Positions 5,792 to 14,255 of a stretch of DNA of 40,776 nt are shown here, one piece after another. Origin of the DNA: an uncultured Candidatus Saccharibacteria bacterium (GTDB lineage: Bacteria; Patescibacteriota; Minisyncoccia; CAIUEV01); NCBI GenBank assembly GCA_964602125.1, contig CAZRPR010000001.1:21890-62665 (forward strand), read 5' to 3'. Within the stretch, counting starts at the first letter, position 1. The number at the start of each line of letters is the position of its first letter. Made by a program: the position numbers and the translations under genes. The notes beneath the pieces are model-generated. The model was not told where the DNA came from and made no database searches. It saw nothing but the letters and a program-made list of their open reading frames with translations.

Positions 5792-5925
5792 AATTCCCCT
5801 CTTGAGAGGGGTGCCCGAACGGTAGTGAGGGCGGGGTGTGTCAACAGTGATTATAGTAATTATTTGTTTCACACACCCCGACTTCGTCGCTTCGCTCCTC
5901 AGCCACCCCTCTCAAGAGGGGAATT
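5792..5925. mobile_element. ORF-less inverted-repeat (MITE-like) element of the Box1/Box2 arm family
   Basis: The left arm 5792-5841 reads aattcccctcttgagaggggtg..cggggtgtgt. The right arm 5871-5925 reads acacaccccg..ccacccctctcaagaggggaatt. The terminal 22 nt and inner 10 nt are perfectly complementary, and the spacer is 29 nt. Same boxes as the arms framing the DUF559 gene at 13573-14066. Confidence 0.75.
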
Positions 5926-8302: not shown

Positions 8303-11300
8303 ATGAAAATAAAAACCCTACTGCTCTCAATCAAATATATCGCTTTTCACCCCATTCGGTCATGGCGGGTTTTTACGCCGAAAACGAAAAGAAGAATCAA
8401 AAAACTAGCATTTGTATTTTTAATAGTGGCCTTGTCTGTGCCGGGCTATTTGTGGTACGAAAAGAAATACGGAAATATTGAAGAGGCGGAGGCCGGCTGG
8501 TGGAACGATGCGTGGATGTATAGAAAATCGATTACGGTAAGCAATTCCTCAGGAAGTGCTCTGACTGATTTTCAAGTGAAGATTTTGGATAATAAAGATT
8601 TGTCGGCCGACATTACGGCAGGGAAGATTCAAACCGATTTGGACGACTTGAGGTTTACGGACATTAGCGGCACAGTTTTGTCTTACTGGATTGAAGATGC
8701 GACCACGACCAGCGTGGATGTTTGGGTAAAAATACCCAGCGTCCCAACGACCGGTGCGACCGCCTATTTTTACTACGGCAACACCCAAGCGACGAGTGAG
8801 CAGAACGGGAACAAGGTTTTTGAGTTTTTTGATGATTTCTCGGGAGATTTAAGCAAATGGACAAATGCGTGTTCAGCCACGATAACTTCAGGATACCTAA
8901 GTATCCCGAATAATAGTAGTTGTGATGCTGTCCCAATGTATGCAAATAACCTAAACTATTCTGATACCACTGGTTACATTTTCGAGTTGAAAGGAAAATT
9001 TTCTTCTGGAGGCAACGGAAGATTACAATTATATCAAAGAAGAAGAAACGCCAATGGATATATGTCCAGATTCTGGATTACGGGTACTTCAACGACTTAT
9101 TATCAAGAATACACAGGAAGTTATGGAGCGAATAATAATGTCGGAAGCAACAATATGTCAGCAGATACCTGGTATACGCTTAAAGTTCAAGTCAATGGAA
9201 GCAATAACACCTATTACGTCAACAATACATCAGTTGGCTCTTATGCAGCATCGGCAAGTCTTTCTCCTTTTTCTGATTTTACAGTTGGCTTGGGAGAATA
9301 TCTAACGGCAGTGCAATATGACGACGTTCGTGTTCGCAAATACGCCTCCACTGACCCCTCCGCCGGCACACCCGCCACCGAAGAAAAAGGGGGTGGACCG
9401 GTTGCATACTGGTCTTTTGATGAAGGCAGGGACACGACGGCTTATGATGCGAGTTCGAATCGTGTTAGTGGCACACTCTATAGTATGTCATCAACGTCTG
9501 ATCCCAATTCTGGCTGGCAAAATGAAGATAAGTGTATTAGTGGAAAGTGCTTGGGTTTTGATGGAACGAATGATGATGTGGAGTTTGGATTAAATAAAAT
9601 AGGCCCTTTGATTGATGGAGCCAGTTCTTCCACAGTCAGTATGTGGGTTAAATACTCATCTCTGGCTGGAGCTGCCAACAAGTACGGCAATGTTATTTAT
9701 GCCAGCAGACAGGCGAGTGCTAATAGTAATATTTGGCTGAATCTAAGAAGTGATGGAGGGAGTGAAGGGAAGCTTTTATTGGGTGGAAGAAGCAAAAGCA
9801 CTGATAGTTTTCAGGAAGTAACAAGCAGTACAGCTCTTAATCCGAATGTTTGGTATCATGTCGTTGGAATTTTGAATTATGCTTCAAATACAGCGACTAT
9901 TTATATAAATGGAGCTCAGTCTGTCAGCTCCGGTGTGTCTTTTGGTTCCACAACTTATGTGCACAGTGCTCCAGGTTCTACGTATGACTCAATAGGATCT
10001 AATGCCGGGGGAATTGTTTTCAAAGGGTATATCGACGAACCAAAGATCTACCCCTACGCTCGCACCGCAGCCCAAATTGCCAAAGACTACAACGCCGGAT
10101 TGGCTGGTATGGGTAAATCTAATGAAGGAACCAGTGCCTCAATTGGTGGCAAATCGAACAAATGGATGACGGACGGTTTGGTGGGCCATTGGAAAATGGA
10201 CGAGGCCAGTTGGAACGGAACGAGTGGAGAAGTGAAAGACGCGAGCGGGAATGCGAATAATGGGACTGGATCTGGGGGAGTTACAACAGGAGCAGGTAAA
10301 TTCGGGAATGGAGGGAATTTTGATGGGAGTGATGATTACGTGAATGCTGGTAACGGATCAAATTTGAATATTACCAATGCAATGACAATTGGAACATGGG
10401 TTAAATTTAATGGTTTAAGCAGCAACTCAGCTATAGTTTCAAAATTCGATTTGAGTGCCGGATCACCCTATAATGGATATGCATTAATAATCGGAGGTGC
10501 GGCATCTAACAGAATAGGATTAAATTTAAATGTAAATGGAGCTTATTCTGGTACTTGGGGAAATACCGTGCTAACTACAGGAGTTTGGTATTATCTTGTG
10601 GCTACATTCACAAATGGTTCGGTGAAGCTTTATGTTAATGGCGTGGATGATGGTTGCAATGGTACGGGTACTGGTTGCTCACCCACTGGTTCGATCTCTA
10701 CTAATACCTTAAATCTAAACATAGGTGAAAATCCAAATGGGGGAAATAAAATAAACGGTTCCATCGACGAAACCCGTATTTACAACCGTGCCCTTTCGCC
10801 CAAAGAAGTGGCCGATCTTTATAATTACGCGCCCGGACCAGTCGGTTATTGGAACATGGACGACGCGACAGGGACGACAACCAAAGATTTGAGCGGGAAT
10901 GGGAATAACGGGACATTGGGTGATTCTTCTTATAGACCCAATTGGTCTCAAGGAAAATATGGAGGCGGTTTGAGTTTCGACGGAACAGACGATTATGTTA
11001 ATGTTGGAGATCCTTCTAGTGGAATTTTAGATATGGGAAATAATGATTTTACGCTTGAAACTTGGTTTAATACAAACAACACTTCCAATCTCCACCAATA
11101 TTTTATGGCCAAAGGACATCTTGATGGCTATTGCGATCAGGCTGCAAATGCAGGATATGGATTTCGCATTAGTTATGGATATTTGAATTTTAAACTTAAT
11201 CCAGGGGCTGTCTCATGCGGAAGTGTTTCGGGAACAACATTAATAAGCTCCTTGCCTACAGGTTGGCACCATGGGGCAGTGGTGGTCAACCGTAGTGGAA

Positions 11301-13567
11301 ATGCCTTGATTTATTTGGATGGAAAATTAGATGGATCAGCTAGTATGTCAACTAATCTGGGTAATAGTCTCAACAATTCAAATAATCTTCGTTTAGGCAA
11401 TTATTATGCCGGTAATTATCTACCTATGAGTGGACTTCTCGATGAAATGAAAATCTACAACTACGCGCGGACGCAAAAGCAAATCGTGGAAGACATGAAC
11501 GGCGGTCATCCGGCGGGTGGCTCGCCGGTCGGTTCGCAAGTCGGCTATTGGAAGTTTGATGAAGGGCAGGGAACGACAGCCAACAATTCAGGTAATGGCG
11601 GATCAACGCTGAACGGGACAATTAATGGCGCGACATGGACGAACGATGGGAAATTTGGAAAGGCGCTTAGTTTTGACGGAAGTAATGATTATGCCAATAC
11701 CTCTTCCCGTATCATTGACAGCACAAATAGTTTTTCAGTTAGTGGCTGGGTAAAATTTAGTAGTCTGTCAAGTAATTACAGTGTCCCCCTCTGGAATGGA
11801 GTCGATAGTACTACGGGTGGATTTGGCCTAGGCTATAGAAAACCAAACTCTAGAGTTATCTATGCGGGCTGGGGTTCTTCTGCCGGAGAAGTGGCTGGAC
11901 CAATAAGTACGGATAACACATGGTACTATTTATCTTCAGTATATGACGGTAGTAAACATAAATTTTATGTTAACGGTGTCTTACAAGGTTCTGTGAATTT
12001 TTCCACTTCAAATTTTGCTAGCGGAACAACCACTTTTGGAAACTTATCTTCCGGTAATGGATATTGGTTTAATGGCCTTATCGACGAAGTAAAAGTCTAT
12101 AATTACGCACTCACCGATTCCGACATTCAACTCGACTACAACCAAGGAAAATCGATGATTCTGGGAAGCAAGGGGACGGAAAGTGATGGGAAGACACCGT
12201 CGAATTCCGCCAGTCGTGCCTACTGCCCTCCGGGAAACGTGGAAGGGAATTGTGCCCCGGGACTAAGCCCCGCCCCGGTAGGTGAATGGAAATTGGATGA
12301 CGGCACCGGCACCACTGTCACTGACACTTCCGGCAACGCCAACACCGGCACCCTCACCAACGGCCCAACATGGGCGCAGGGAAAAGCGGGAAAGGCGGTG
12401 AAATTTGATGGAACGGATGATTTGATCCAATTTTCAACATCAAATTTTCTTACGAACGCAGGTTCGATTTCAGCTTGGGTTAAAAATGATGTTTGGGGAG
12501 CCAGTAATACTGACACTGTCATAGACTTGTATGATAGCACTAATCCTGGTGTCAAAAGAGATGTTTTTACAATAAAATATTGGTCCAGCAACTCAAAACT
12601 AACTGCGATGATGCTTGATTCTAGCAGTAATTGGTATAGTGCTGGAGCGACTGTTACTTACACCCCTAATCTTTGGTATCATGTTGAAATTGTCAGAAGT
12701 GGAACGTCTCTTAAAATATATATTAATGGAGCCGAAGCCGGCTCAGCAACAGTTAGCTCCAATAATTTTTACAATTTTGATAGAATTCGAATAGGACAAT
12801 CAGCAACCAGCAGTGAAGCTTGGCAAGGCCTCATCGACGACGTAAAGATTTTTTCTTACGCCCGCACCCCTGCCCAAATTGCTTGGGATTACAACCAAGG
12901 AAAACCAGTAGGGTGGTGGAAGATGGATGAAGGGCAGGGCGCAACCGTTTACGATCATTCCGGCAACGCCAACAACGGAACGATGACCAACATGGATCCC
13001 GCCACCGATTGGGTGGCCGGCAAGAACAACAGCGCCTTGGATTTTGATGGGAGTAATGATTATGTGAGTGTGGCAGATAATAATCTTTGGAATTTTGGGA
13101 CAAATGATTTTTCCATAAATCTTTGGGCCAAGTGGACGAGCTTAGCTAATATTGAAAGTATATTGGGCCAGTCAACTAGTGGTGGAAATGTGACAAAGTG
13201 GAATTTAGTAAAAAGTATGAATACTAGTTTTGGATATGATAATTCTTTACTAACATTTCATGTTTATAATGGAGGTAATTATTTTGCTTCTTGGAATTGG
13301 ACGGCGAGCACAAACACTTGGTATAATGTGGCAATCGTAAGATCAGGAAACAATTGGAATTTGTATGTTAATGGTATTCAGACTGGCGGAACGCAAACGC
13401 AATCTGCCTCAGTTCCTAACATTGCTACAGACTTGAGAATAGGTAGCGACGGAGAAGCCTGGAATTTTTTAAATGGTCAAATCGACGACGTCCGCATCTA
13501 TAATTACGCGTTGTCAGCGGAACAGGTGAAACAGGTAATGAACGAAGGTGCGGTGAGGTTCAAATAG
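8303..13567 (+). CDS. Giant surface protein: N-terminal TM, DUF2341 domain, one ConA-like module and six LamG (Laminin_G_3) repeats
   Basis: 1754 aa. DUF2341 signature WWNDAWMYRKSITV..LTDFQV..DLRFTD..LSYWIED..VWVKIPS..YFYYGN. Six modules each open with VG.W..DEG.GTT..D.SGN.N.GT and close with IDE.(K/R)IYNYA......I..DYN. Confidence 0.9.
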   Translation: MKIKTLLLSIKYIAFHPIRSWRVFTPKTKRRIKKLAFVFLIVALSVPGYLWYEKKYGNIEEAEAGWWNDAWMYRKSITVSNSSGSALTDFQVKILDNKDLSADITAGKIQTDLDDLRFTDISGTVLSYWIEDATTTSVDVWVKIPSVPTTGATAYFYYGNTQATSEQNGNKVFEFFDDFSGDLSKWTNACSATITSGYLSIPNNSSCDAVPMYANNLNYSDTTGYIFELKGKFSSGGNGRLQLYQRRRNANGYMSRFWITGTSTTYYQEYTGSYGANNNVGSNNMSADTWYTLKVQVNGSNNTYYVNNTSVGSYAASASLSPFSDFTVGLGEYLTAVQYDDVRVRKYASTDPSAGTPATEEKGGGPVAYWSFDEGRDTTAYDASSNRVSGTLYSMSSTSDPNSGWQNEDKCISGKCLGFDGTNDDVEFGLNKIGPLIDGASSSTVSMWVKYSSLAGAANKYGNVIYASRQASANSNIWLNLRSDGGSEGKLLLGGRSKSTDSFQEVTSSTALNPNVWYHVVGILNYASNTATIYINGAQSVSSGVSFGSTTYVHSAPGSTYDSIGSNAGGIVFKGYIDEPKIYPYARTAAQIAKDYNAGLAGMGKSNEGTSASIGGKSNKWMTDGLVGHWKMDEASWNGTSGEVKDASGNANNGTGSGGVTTGAGKFGNGGNFDGSDDYVNAGNGSNLNITNAMTIGTWVKFNGLSSNSAIVSKFDLSAGSPYNGYALIIGGAASNRIGLNLNVNGAYSGTWGNTVLTTGVWYYLVATFTNGSVKLYVNGVDDGCNGTGTGCSPTGSISTNTLNLNIGENPNGGNKINGSIDETRIYNRALSPKEVADLYNYAPGPVGYWNMDDATGTTTKDLSGNGNNGTLGDSSYRPNWSQGKYGGGLSFDGTDDYVNVGDPSSGILDMGNNDFTLETWFNTNNTSNLHQYFMAKGHLDGYCDQAANAGYGFRISYGYLNFKLNPGAVSCGSVSGTTLISSLPTGWHHGAVVVNRSGNALIYLDGKLDGSASMSTNLGNSLNNSNNLRLGNYYAGNYLPMSGLLDEMKIYNYARTQKQIVEDMNGGHPAGGSPVGSQVGYWKFDEGQGTTANNSGNGGSTLNGTINGATWTNDGKFGKALSFDGSNDYANTSSRIIDSTNSFSVSGWVKFSSLSSNYSVPLWNGVDSTTGGFGLGYRKPNSRVIYAGWGSSAGEVAGPISTDNTWYYLSSVYDGSKHKFYVNGVLQGSVNFSTSNFASGTTTFGNLSSGNGYWFNGLIDEVKVYNYALTDSDIQLDYNQGKSMILGSKGTESDGKTPSNSASRAYCPPGNVEGNCAPGLSPAPVGEWKLDDGTGTTVTDTSGNANTGTLTNGPTWAQGKAGKAVKFDGTDDLIQFSTSNFLTNAGSISAWVKNDVWGASNTDTVIDLYDSTNPGVKRDVFTIKYWSSNSKLTAMMLDSSSNWYSAGATVTYTPNLWYHVEIVRSGTSLKIYINGAEAGSATVSSNNFYNFDRIRIGQSATSSEAWQGLIDDVKIFSYARTPAQIAWDYNQGKPVGWWKMDEGQGATVYDHSGNANNGTMTNMDPATDWVAGKNNSALDFDGSNDYVSVADNNLWNFGTNDFSINLWAKWTSLANIESILGQSTSGGNVTKWNLVKSMNTSFGYDNSLLTFHVYNGGNYFASWNWTASTNTWYNVAIVRSGNNWNLYVNGIQTGGTQTQSASVPNIATDLRIGSDGEAWNFLNGQIDDVRIYNYALSAEQVKQVMNEGAVRFK

Positions 13568-13623
13568 AAGCTAATCCCCTCTTGAGAGGGGTGGATTCGA
13601 GCGAAGCGAGAAGACGGGGTGTG

Positions 13624-13986
13624 TTATCTATTTAGAATCCAAGTTCTTATTGTTTCTATTACTCCAAACATATTTTTTCTAATTTCACCTTCTGAAAATC
13701 TAAGAAAATTTATTCCTAAAGATTCAATTTCTTTTTGTCTTTCTATATCTTTCTTGTTCTTTTCTTCTTCAAAATCATGAGTTACTCCATCAATTTCTAT
13801 AGCTAATTTTAACTCCTTGGAATAAAAATCAACGATATATTTTTTGATTGGTTTTTGTCTAATAAATCTATAGTTCTCAAGTTTTTTTCCTTTTAGTTCT
13901 TTCCATAGCAAAACTTCAGACAAGGTACTTTCCTTTCTTAGTTTCCTAGCTAGTTTTTTTAAGTTTTGATTGTAGAGAATCTTCAT
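13624..13986 (-). CDS. DUF559 / Vsr-like PD-(D/E)XK endonuclease-domain protein
   Basis: 120 aa. LRKESTLSEVLLWKELKGKKL..YRFIRQKPI..YIVDFY....LAIEIDG..H.........D..R...L...G...LRF is the typical DUF559 pattern. Confidence 0.85.
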   Translation of the reverse strand: MKILYNQNLKKLARKLRKESTLSEVLLWKELKGKKLENYRFIRQKPIKKYIVDFYSKELKLAIEIDGVTHDFEEEKNKKDIERQKEIESLGINFLRFSEGEIRKNMFGVIETIRTWILNR

Positions 13987-14027
13987 TATTATTTTTTAAA
14001 GATTAAAACACACCCCGTCTTGCCTTC

Positions 14028-14047
14028 CCTGCCTACCGGCAGGCAGG
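14028..14047. repeat. 20-nt palindrome copy (cctgcctaccggcaggcagg) nested in the right arm
   Basis: Read directly. It is extended by flanking cttgcc..ggcaag to a hairpin of about 38 nt and occupies the variable cassette between Box2 and Box1. Confidence 0.9.
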
Positions 14048-14186
14048 CGGCAAGCCACCCCTCTCGAGAGGGGATTAAAACATGCCTTGATAAATTTCTC
14101 TTAAAATCTAAATTAAAATAAAAATAGAAAAATATTTTTTAATTGTTTTTGAGAATCAAATTGATGTCTTATAATTAAAAAATGAC

Positions 14187-14255
14187 ACACACCCCGTCTT
14201 GCCTTCCCTGCCTACCGGCAGGCAGGCGGCAAGCCACCCCTCTCAAGAGGGGATT
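14187..14255. repeat. Solo second right arm (Box2-palindrome-Box1), tandem to the DUF559 element
   Basis: acacaccccgtcttgccttccctgcctaccggcaggcaggcggcaagccacccctctcaagaggggatt is nearly identical to 14008-14066 (tcaa versus tcga in the Box1 core). The two arms are separated by 120 nt of AT-rich sequence. Confidence 0.85.
14207..14226. repeat. 20-nt palindrome copy nested in the solo arm
   Basis: cctgcctaccggcaggcagg, read directly. Confidence 0.9.

Follow-up and report, generated by a model that had tools for sequence, protein, structure and literature searches.

A DUF559 nuclease gene between inverted repeats of intrastrand-triplex design in a Saccharibacteria contig: a candidate REP/RAYT-like partnership

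The window locus

The stretch analyzed here, 40,776 nucleotides (nt) from a contig of an uncultured Candidatus Saccharibacteria bacterium (CAZRPR010000001.1; 'the window'), contains a small nuclease gene that lies between two inverted copies of a short, structured repeat. The gene (13624-13986, minus strand) encodes a 120-aa DUF559 protein, a Vsr-like PD-(D/E)XK nuclease (Pfam PF04480). On one side of it lies the left arm, a forward triplex module (13573-13624, plus strand) comprising Box1 AATCCCCTCTTGAGAGGGGTGG, with the hairpin CCCCTC-TTGA-GAGGGG (13576-13591, plus strand) evident in the sequence and in its DNA fold; a linker with a GCGAAGC core in the region of a second hairpin, hp2 (13592-13612, plus strand); and Box2 GACGGGGTGTGT (13613-13624, plus strand), the G/T third strand of the design discussed below. 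The same module, inverted, forms the right arm (14008-14076, minus strand, 69 nt), with the complement of Box2 at 14008-14019, Box1 at 14055-14076 (both minus strand), and a 38-nt linker that forms a long hp2 hairpin. The unit is compact: base 13624 is common to the DUF559 stop codon and left-arm Box2, such that the arm abuts the stop, and the right arm starts at 14008, 21 nt upstream of the ATG (13984-13986). A first-pass annotation, made from the letters alone, had described the arms, the open reading frame (ORF), Box1 and Box2, as well as an ORF-less pair of arms and a solo arm elsewhere, and all of these are present in the sequence. The 1-nt overlap of stop codon and left arm and the 21-nt distance of the start from the right arm were also correctly described, as was the palindromic Box1 hairpin, which as single-stranded DNA folds into a 6-bp stem with a 4-nt loop. 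The right arm had, however, been ended at 14066 (59 nt), which falls inside the Box1 hairpin; the true end is 14076.

The 40.8-kb window contains five copies each of Box1 and Box2, versus 0.02 expected from shuffles, none of which (0/100) reached five. In addition to the two framing arms, these copies belong to the ORF-less pair (5792-5925) and to the solo arm (14187-14255, minus strand). The solo arm is a direct duplicate of the right arm, 179 nt away, with 94% identity over 81 nt and the same 38-nt linker and hp2. Three independent short-read contigs of the same strain, reached through the neighboring gene (L214-L216, position 1-30; window 14237-14255), all start within it, which means that arms are repeated enough in that genome to break de Bruijn assemblies. 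The ORF-less pair is convergent, its left arm (5792-5841, plus strand) separated by a 29-nt spacer from its right arm (5871-5925, minus strand), whose hp2 resembles that of the 13573 arm. Its spacer resembles the gene unit no more than shuffled sequence does, 264 of 300 shuffles scoring as well. Folded as a transcript, the two arms of this pair would form a long stem (-77.8 kcal/mol, z -7.9). We found no T-run terminator at the arms, and no Rfam family on them at either gathering or E-value thresholds.

Modules of intrastrand-triplex design

The order of elements in a module is a pyrimidine-purine hairpin (Box1), a variable second hairpin (hp2) and a G/T box (Box2). Alignment of the five window arms gives two invariant blocks, T-CCCCTCT-NN-AGAGGGG-TG and C-GGGGTGTGT, joined by a linker that is variable in length and sequence. 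This linker forms hp2 in four of the five, the exception being the 13573 arm, for which the minimum-energy fold pairs differently and is no better than its shuffles; Box2 is unpaired in most single-strand folds.

A single rule relates the boxes across sequence variants, in that Box2 read 5' to 3' spells out the hairpin's purine arm in the opposite direction, 3' to 5', with T in place of each A. The pairings are CCCCTCT/AGAGGGG with GGGGTGT, CCCCTCC/GGAGGGG with GGGGTGG, CCCCCTT/AAGGGGG with GGGGGTT, and CCCCCCT with GGGGGGT; all five window arms have CCCCTCT/AGAGGGG followed by GGGGTGT, and the mirror rule holds in variants A to D. Counted in the protein-centered loci described below, that is, without DNA-pattern selection, stem and box covary: CCCCTCT occurs with GGGGTGT 58 times (9/0/2 with other boxes), CCCCTCC with GGGGTGG 37 times (0/0/2), and CCCCCTT with GGGGGTT 35 times (1/0/3), while a plain G/A mirror form of Box2 is rare (1-2 cases). 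Such a mirror relation is meaningless for Watson-Crick pairing or for a duplex-binding protein. It is the exact design of a putative antiparallel, purine-motif foldback intrastrand triplex with G.G-C and T.A-T triplets, in the strand order pyrimidine strand, loop, purine strand, loop, G/T third strand. The relation defines the triplex class, and was missed at first pass.

In window-type arms hp2 (an 18-38-nt linker) stands in for a short second loop. Nearly all distinct linkers (124/127) fold better than their shuffles (mean -8.25 vs -3.11 kcal/mol), with stems of 3 to 13 bp that are unrelated in sequence, and with loops that are mainly GAA or GCA, the triloops of unusually stable DNA mini-hairpins. 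Related modules have short linkers of 3-5 nt (ATTTA, TTA, CAA), within the loop definition of the published triplex finder ITxF.

Judged by sequence, the window arms belong to an intrastrand-triplex class whose architecture has been published as BoxC, potential intrastrand triplex (PIT) elements, and triplex motifs (TM_ECO) (Bergler 1992; Hoyne and Maher 2000, 2002; Holder et al. 2015, PMC4666352). Holder et al. counted 3610 TM_ECO copies in 262 proteobacterial genomes, with many G/C-rich motifs in cyanobacteria, and the isolated strand of an E. coli motif forms a stable triplex by circular dichroism and nuclear magnetic resonance (PMC4666352). They noted that two subtypes form inverted pairs and that the local sequence is more variable; near TM copies they never came upon a transposase, an integrase or any other mobility function, and they do not mention DUF559 (PMC4666352). 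The features shared with window-type arms are extensive: on one strand a pyrimidine arm, loop, purine arm, loop and G-rich third strand with G.G-C and T(A).A-T triplets; high copy number and intergenic placement in both orientations, frequently with two subtypes joined in an inverted pair; and stems that are strongly conserved, loops that vary, and local indels. The window family is nonetheless distinct, having CCCCTCT/GGGGTGTGT where TM_ECO has CCCTCNCCC/GGGNGAGGG, and the TM_ECO pattern CCCTCNCCC-N3-6-GGGNGAGGG-N3-GGGNGAGGG is not matched by the window arms, which have 7 triplets of the CCCCTCT type; they are the same class, but another family. The 18-38-nt second loop with its own hairpin lies outside the 1-6-nt loop limit of the ITxF finder (the TM_ECO second loop is 3 nt; PMC4666352), and so window-type arms would be missed by it. 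Further differences are that modules here also occur in frame within genes, and that they enclose a DUF559 gene, whereas the published work is without an associated gene or mobility function. We found no link of DUF559 or ycjD, the DUF559 gene of E. coli, to a repeat family in the open-access PubMed Central (PMC) and bioRxiv literature, in agreement with the first-pass view that a DUF559-centered unit is undescribed; that view needs amending as regards the arms, which are of a published class (PMC4666352).

The DUF559 protein

The DUF559 identity of the gene product is well supported (PF04480, E=1.8e-29, 102.3 bits against a 20.6-bit cut-off, residues 8-115 of 120), as the first-pass annotation had it. 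Profile matches to the ORF are limited to DUF559, MTES_1575 and a PvuRts1I-like nuclease, with no transposase domain. Residues invariant in 31 homologues, including D53, E64, D66, R83, Q84 and E88, are all present in the window copy. An AlphaFold2 model (pLDDT 91) predicts a restriction-endonuclease-like alpha/beta core with conserved acidic residues, for which Foldseek ranks as likely structural relatives 3HRL (a DUF559 protein of N. gonorrhoeae, E 1.8e-6), 3R3P (I-Bth0305I, 8.7e-4), and PvuRts1I and Vsr (1VSR, 0.05). Weak homing-endonuclease matches were obtained in PADLOC and PHROG. Membership in a defense system was considered and rejected, PADLOC giving only weak nuclease-domain matches.

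DUF559 is a large family (17,867 clusters at 50% identity), within which the window clade is far from YcjD (61 bits against a 218-bit equivalog cut-off). An exact-protein look-up returned no record for either the window DUF559 or P0001. The clade is essentially absent from plasmid and phage collections, considered as possible vehicles, which gave one distant plasmid match and no phage match. Three longer proteins, P0244 (377 aa), P0297 (520 aa) and P0248 (1214 aa), contain two or three DUF559 stretches, or a DUF559 domain in a far longer protein; they could represent tandem units fused by read-through, or true multidomain nucleases.

Association of gene and module

The best 120 homologues listed are 54-99% identical to the window protein and come from many phyla. 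Many have a C-terminal tail, such as HTPNPSQEG or HTPSSP..PPLSRGD, that is the read-through of an abutting arm. In a sample of 80 metagenome loci, picked by protein similarity only, nearly every DUF559 gene is flanked by hairpin and G-box modules of several sequence variants. When modules were defined strictly (a perfect 6-7-bp stem and a perfectly matched G-box), convergent pairs fell into two groups by interior length, 0-99 nt (19 pairs) and 350-499 nt (45 pairs), with none at 100-349 nt; DUF559 is enclosed in 44 of the 45 longer ones. Under relaxed typing, at least two module signatures lie within 220 nt of the gene in 76 of the 91 cases scored over all loci (~84%), and module density is 3.05/kb around the gene versus 0.22/kb elsewhere in the same loci. 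No other cargo recurs between convergent arms. Two candidates, a NUDIX gene (L127) and a 160-aa ORF (L141, DinB-like by eye), were rejected as single cases in wider intervals that look like ordinary genes between unrelated arms.

The very Box1/Box2 framing of the window recurs around DUF559 genes in unrelated settings: a Logan contig (L001), Verrucomicrobiota (L022), Bacteroidota (L024 and L117) and a deltaproteobacterial metagenome-assembled genome (L057). The unit recognized at first pass is thus no local accident, and most members of the clade are framed by variant modules. Protein identity is higher among loci with the same module type than among those with different types (60.1% vs 54.2%, 0/2000 permutations), and the nearest protein neighbor has the same module type in 64 of 73 cases; that protein similarity tracks the flanking variant indicates that gene and arms descend together. 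One DUF559 clade is tied to inverted triplex-design modules in an association that is tight, cross-phylum and essentially exclusive.

Some loci depart from the usual layout. In L135 (2100-2250, 2580-2720) DUF559 is flanked on both sides by a composite unit in direct repeat, [reverse module with hp2]-ATTCAAAATATT-[forward module, short linker], which makes an alternating array with a fixed head-to-head linker that resembles a bacterial interspersed mosaic element (BIME). In the P0008 lineage (L002-L011, protein 65% identical) there are only degenerate hairpins by the gene, TCTCCCTTAATAAAGGGAG upstream and CCACCCCCTTTCATAAGGGGGAT within a C-terminal extension; in all 16 contigs, from different samples, this lineage occupies a single fixed locus, and it has the look of an old, immobilized copy. 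A cultured member of Bacteroidota, Adhaeribacter soli (L226 1330-1500, GCA_008727925.1), has a type-B forward module 13 nt upstream of the DUF559 ATG, a reverse type-B module past the preceding gene and none downstream, and could be an experimental host.

An exact-pattern scan for the window-type arm, one genome per species, approached the association from the other side, and found the arm in at least 120 genome loci and more than 15 phylum-level groups, with 156 arms among the matches listed. These matches include Verrucomicrobiota, Bacteroidota, Ignavibacteria, Bacillota (Pelosinus), Aminicenantes, Zixibacteria, Glassbacteria, Nitrospinota, Gemmatimonadota, Patescibacteria, Planctomycetota, Binatia and DPANN archaea, among others. 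Their flanks range from AT-rich to very GC-rich and several are on megabase contigs or complete chromosomes, such that mis-binning cannot account for the cross-phylum spread. Ten of the 156 arms (~6%) lie within 150 nt of a DUF559 ORF, far above chance. Arms are arranged as solo arms, convergent pairs (Box2 inward), divergent pairs and tandem arrays, and among the matches listed solo arms, divergent pairs and arrays are as common as convergent pairs. The mid-sized convergent intervals of this survey hold DUF559 in L022, L024, L057 and L117, with one exception, the 722-nt interval of the NUDIX gene in L127. A profile search for DUF559 remnants beside solo arms found none at the sensitivity of hidden Markov models, and no transposase recurs in the fetched loci. 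Divergent pairs, with their Box1s 21-32 nt apart, are common in Opitutaceae, where they have conserved 25-30-nt linkers (e.g. L029 1588-1617, 3771-3800). Two IMG/VR contigs classed as viral have a window-type arm each (L012 2164-2206, L013 2934-2977), and no DUF559 gene was detected in their fetched stretches.

Gain, loss and in-frame copies

Modules are in large excess over the gene, and are gained and lost, also in frame within genes. The best named matches to the BipA of the window are from Moranbacteria and other Patescibacteria (74-78% identity), which makes the host a member of Patescibacteria. Three relatives with 91-92% identical BipA share gene order with the window and have no module in ~54 kb of syntenic and adjacent DNA, a comparison that leaves out the orthologous site of the gene unit itself. 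In the relatives, 18 nt separate the stop codon of the DEAD-box helicase gene from a conserved terminator downstream; in the window, this stop codon and terminator are separated by 41 nt, the 134-nt ORF-less pair and a further 5 nt. The pair is missing at this orthologous site in relatives L223 and L224, which is accordingly an empty site. As to the surroundings of the gene unit, it begins 5 nt past the stop codon of a 1754-aa LamG-repeat protein (window 8303-13567), the counterpart of which has 1693 aa in one relative (L223 1-3234). At the LamG position the L218 lineage has instead a 193-aa predicted protein on the opposite strand, suggesting that the neighborhood of the gene unit is itself variable.

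Turnover within genes was also found. A 105-nt cluster of three modules in L189 is absent from orthologous L193 (165-300); it comprises 35 codons, with modules of two variants, in frame in an N6/N4 DNA methylase ORF. That ORF (667 aa, L189 483-2486) has three in-frame clusters, near 590-720, 1724-1833 and 2250-2400, of which the middle one is absent in L193. In L061 an extra module lies beside one common to paralogue L064, within a nonribosomal peptide synthetase (NRPS) gene. Aminicenantes NRPS genes (L061 1326-1423, L064 2141-2177, L091 987-1023) carry reverse modules in frame, ..FEIE-QHTPPFGHPSQEG-I.., and the second L061 module is another variant directly beside the first. Ten type IX secretion system (T9SS) sorting domains of Ignavibacteria have an in-frame module at the same loop, ..KFSI-PLLRGVAEGRGV-LLKVYN.., with sites at L131 1945-1981 and 3253-3295, L017 1440-1476, L043 101-137, L069 1267-1303, L081 7625-7667, L096 898-934 and 2615-2651, L123 36-72, and L133 3701-3743; the Pfam domain Por_Secre_tail was confirmed for L131. 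Their consensus is ..PFNP.T.I.F.I-PL(L/S)RGV..GRGV-..L.IYD.., with constant orientation and an hp2 that varies between copies. This could be either a preferred insertion site or one old insertion spread with a paralogous domain. A 59-nt indel between L148 (2905-2963) and L140 (2908) was rejected as a module, being a different hairpin (GCGTAACCGTCATGGTTGCGC) downstream of the DUF559 unit.

The gene itself decays. A deletion derivative in L169 keeps the first 100 nt of DUF559, fused to the next gene; L106 has a frameshifted copy; and an ORF-less pair in L022 keeps the last 18 nt of the interior of the neighboring unit (17/18 identical, 0/300 shuffles). The remnants in L022 and L169 imply that some gene-less forms, at the least, arose by deletion and are not virgin targets.

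BoxC and ycjD in E. coli

In E. coli K-12 the DUF559 gene ycjD adjoins fabI (envM), and a passage of Holder et al. places the first discovery of BoxC in the fabI/envM sequencing paper (Bergler 1992; PMC4666352). Downstream of ycjD, at a distance of ~180 nt, lies a canonical TM_ECO, CCCTCGCCCC-TCTG-GGGAGAGGG-TTA-GGGTGAGGGG; the stop codon of ycjD is itself overlapped by a degenerate hairpin, and between hairpin and TM_ECO there is a duplicated 3' end of ycjD. The gene is present in ~62% of 5426 complete E. coli genomes and absent from ~38%; in ycjD-negative genomes the 8-kb eefRABCD operon fills the sapF-fabI interval, and there is no empty site (PMC12817139). Together ycjD, BoxC/TM_ECO and the duplicated 3' end make up a ~650-bp segment that alternates with eefRABCD (L217, NC_000913.3 1351150-1351830; L221, L222), and the K-12-side homology breakpoint lies ~40 nt from the BoxC copy at sapF-fabI. 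A crude count (28-nt exact word), confounded by phylogroup, is suggestive of ~3 extra BoxC-like places in ycjD-positive rows against ~1 in ycjD-negative ones, with which the 29 motifs of strain 55989 and the single one of IHE3034 agree (PMC4666352).

Comparison with known systems

The closest parallel is the REPtron, in which a repetitive extragenic palindrome (REP) is partnered by a REP-associated tyrosine transposase (RAYT), and the analogy drawn in the first-pass annotation fits the anatomy. Here too a small nuclease gene is bracketed by a short structured repeat in inverted orientation, with a large excess of further copies dispersed elsewhere; these are found alone, as inverted doublets or in alternating, BIME-like arrays, without target-site duplication and in some cases within genes (PMC3733652). 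However, RAYT is an HUH-Y1 (IS200/IS605-like) transposase whereas the enzyme here has the PD-(D/E)XK/Vsr fold; the GTAG or CGTC tag at the hairpin foot is lacking, the arms starting instead with (A/G)(A/T/G)T-CCCC; the repeat is a triplex module rather than a simple hairpin; it is near-identical across phyla, whereas REPs are lineage-specific; and cleavage of the repeat has been demonstrated for RAYT, while for DUF559 we infer it. The unit would therefore work like a REPtron, with another enzyme fold and another DNA structure, without being one.

I-Bth0305I (PDB 3R3P) appears to share the catalytic fold in the model comparison (Foldseek E 8.7e-4, TM-scores 0.61/0.74), and is likewise a selfish nuclease gene at a defined sequence with flanking homology. 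It differs in having an added DNA-binding region and in residing in a group I intron inside a conserved gene, whereas the 120-aa window gene is free-standing between repeats, in neither intron nor intein. Looking for the signs of homing, we found ORF-less pairs, at least one of them a deletion derivative, and recovered no pair of alleles with and without the gene at one site. Rickettsia palindromic elements (RPEs) are also short palindromic repeats found in frame in functional protein-coding genes, as are modules here in T9SS sorting domains, NRPS and DNA methylase; RPEs are, by contrast, 100-150 bp long and restricted to a single lineage, without triplex design or a known associated nuclease gene. 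YcjD and NGO0050 (N. gonorrhoeae, PDB 3HRL) share Pfam family and fold with the window protein, in a family without established function. Of the hallmarks of insertion sequences and of miniature inverted-repeat transposable elements (MITEs), inverted repeats are present, and target-site duplication and a transposase domain are absent.

A proposed partnership and its rivals

We consider it somewhat probable, on balance, that window 13573-14076 is one copy of a widespread composite, a DUF559 gene between two inverted triplex-forming modules, in a partnership like that of REP and RAYT; mobility of the composite and cleavage of its arms by the nuclease are what we infer from this. DUF559 would be a module-specific nuclease, recognizing either the folded hairpin/triplex when the G-rich strand is single-stranded, or the duplex sequence of the module, and would nick or cut the DNA next to it. 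Modules might then be copied as repair or replication restart uses another locus with modules as its template; a gene-bearing convergent pair acting as donor would pass on the nuclease gene as well. It is tempting to extend this to the whole clade, and to YcjD, as the missing enzymes of BoxC/PIT/TM, which would read folded single-stranded triplexes and by their cuts create, copy and erase repeats, in-frame ones within genes included, across bacterial phyla, an extension that is possible but which we hold tentatively and think a little more apt to fail than to stand.

Several observations weigh against the partnership. A 120-aa nuclease has no evident strand-joining activity, which leaves insertion into naive sites unexplained, and no stable triplex was found in duplex DNA or by in vivo footprinting (PMC4666352). 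No target-site duplication is present in 35 of 45 framed units, and the others have 1-4 nt, a chance level. Two gene copies in one locus are only 76% identical, and no recent copying event was caught. The 'autonomous' mobility suggested at first pass is in these respects unproven, there being no target-site duplications, no recent duplicate copies and no evident joining activity. The stem-Box2 covariation rests on only three or four repeat lineages rather than many independent events, gene and module are known to co-occur at the level of the locus rather than the genome, and BoxC copies persist in E. coli strains without ycjD. Most arms (~94% among the matches listed) are far from any DUF559 gene. 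The first-pass annotation would have taken arms scattered independently of the gene as telling against its idea, and in a trivial sense they are so scattered; an excess of gene-less arms is, however, just what REP/RAYT logic predicts, and so the idea is not refuted.

Foremost among the rivals is a homing model, in which DUF559, as a free-standing endonuclease gene, parasitizes pre-existing palindromic module pairs: it would cut an ORF-less pair and be copied into its center via arm homology, and the modules would spread by a separate process. That the second-best structural match is the I-Bth0305I catalytic domain (E 8.7e-4), and that PADLOC and PHROG give weak matches of this kind, would be in keeping with homing, as is the position of the gene, always exactly between the Box2 ends of a convergent pair; ORF-less short-spacer pairs exist as potential targets, and the lack of target-site duplication is as expected. 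However, the gene-less forms in L022 and L169 derive by deletion, protein lineages track module variants in a manner suggesting long co-descent, no recent within-genome gene copies were seen, and the spread of the modules themselves is left unexplained. Deletion-derived ORF-less pairs and co-descent weakly favor the partnership, and we regard homing as unlikely. It may alternatively be that DUF559 is a host maintenance nuclease processing hairpin or triplex obstacles in replication or repair, with modules that regulate or insulate it or simply accumulate nearby. Its relationship to the repair nuclease Vsr would suit such a role, and triplex motifs stall polymerases in vitro and mark unstable loci (PMC4666352); new modules insert beside old ones, and the 21 nt between arm and ATG leave no room for a promoter of its own, such that the arm must belong to the transcript or control region of the gene. 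A maintenance function is nevertheless improbable given that gene and modules are jointly absent from syntenic close relatives (the gene unit's own site being outside the comparison), are patchy across phyla with the same 27 specified bases, and include truncated and decaying gene copies, and that the E. coli gene is dispensable, being absent in ~38% of complete genomes. Patchiness, decay and dispensability are traits of a selfish or accessory element rather than of housekeeping.

Alternatively, an unlinked transposase could move a MITE-like element of which the arms are the terminal inverted repeats, with DUF559 a passenger. The arms are inverted repeats, ORF-less pairs are MITE-like, and most arms have no nuclease gene nearby; a passenger would vary, though, and DUF559 occupies 44 of 45 mid-sized convergent intervals. 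Moreover, there is no target-site duplication, convergent pairs are no more common than single arms, divergent pairs and arrays, and no transposase recurs in the fetched loci, nor is one found near the E. coli copies according to Holder et al. (PMC4666352), making this explanation quite improbable. We give the least credence, very little indeed, to arms that act only as RNA (terminators, mRNA-stabilizing stems, or an RNase III site formed by arm pairing) without any role as DNA, or to chance GC-rich hairpins. Paired arms do form a long transcript stem (-77.8 kcal/mol, z -7.9, in the ORF-less pair), but chance is excluded by the shuffles (0/100), there is neither a T-run terminator nor an Rfam family, and in E. 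coli PIT elements showed activity neither as promoters nor as terminators. Box2 follows a mirror rule rather than Watson-Crick pairing, one that corresponds to purine-motif triplets, which reportedly do not form when strands are RNA (Semerad and Maher 1994, as cited in PMC4666352), and modules lie in both orientations and also within coding regions.

Significance

The repeat class and the protein family were each known separately; their linkage, the structured-loop variant, the cross-phylum identity of arms and the in-frame insertions appear to be new, in that none was found in the open-access PMC and bioRxiv literature. BoxC/PIT/TM repeats have been cataloged for three decades, in thousands of copies in enterobacteria and cyanobacteria, without a known function or a known associated gene, and DUF559 is the first candidate enzyme for these long-orphan motifs. 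There is a practical side as well, as modules break assemblies and add spurious 'HTP..PLSRG'-type tails and inserts to predicted proteins. The linkage gives both the repeats and DUF559, a very large family with no assigned role, a testable function. If the broader reading, in which the clade and YcjD recognize folded triplexes, is correct, the partnership would be a second, independently evolved instance of the REP/RAYT type, bringing a second enzyme class into that paradigm, and DUF559 would be the first known case of an enzyme whose specific substrate is an intramolecular DNA triplex.

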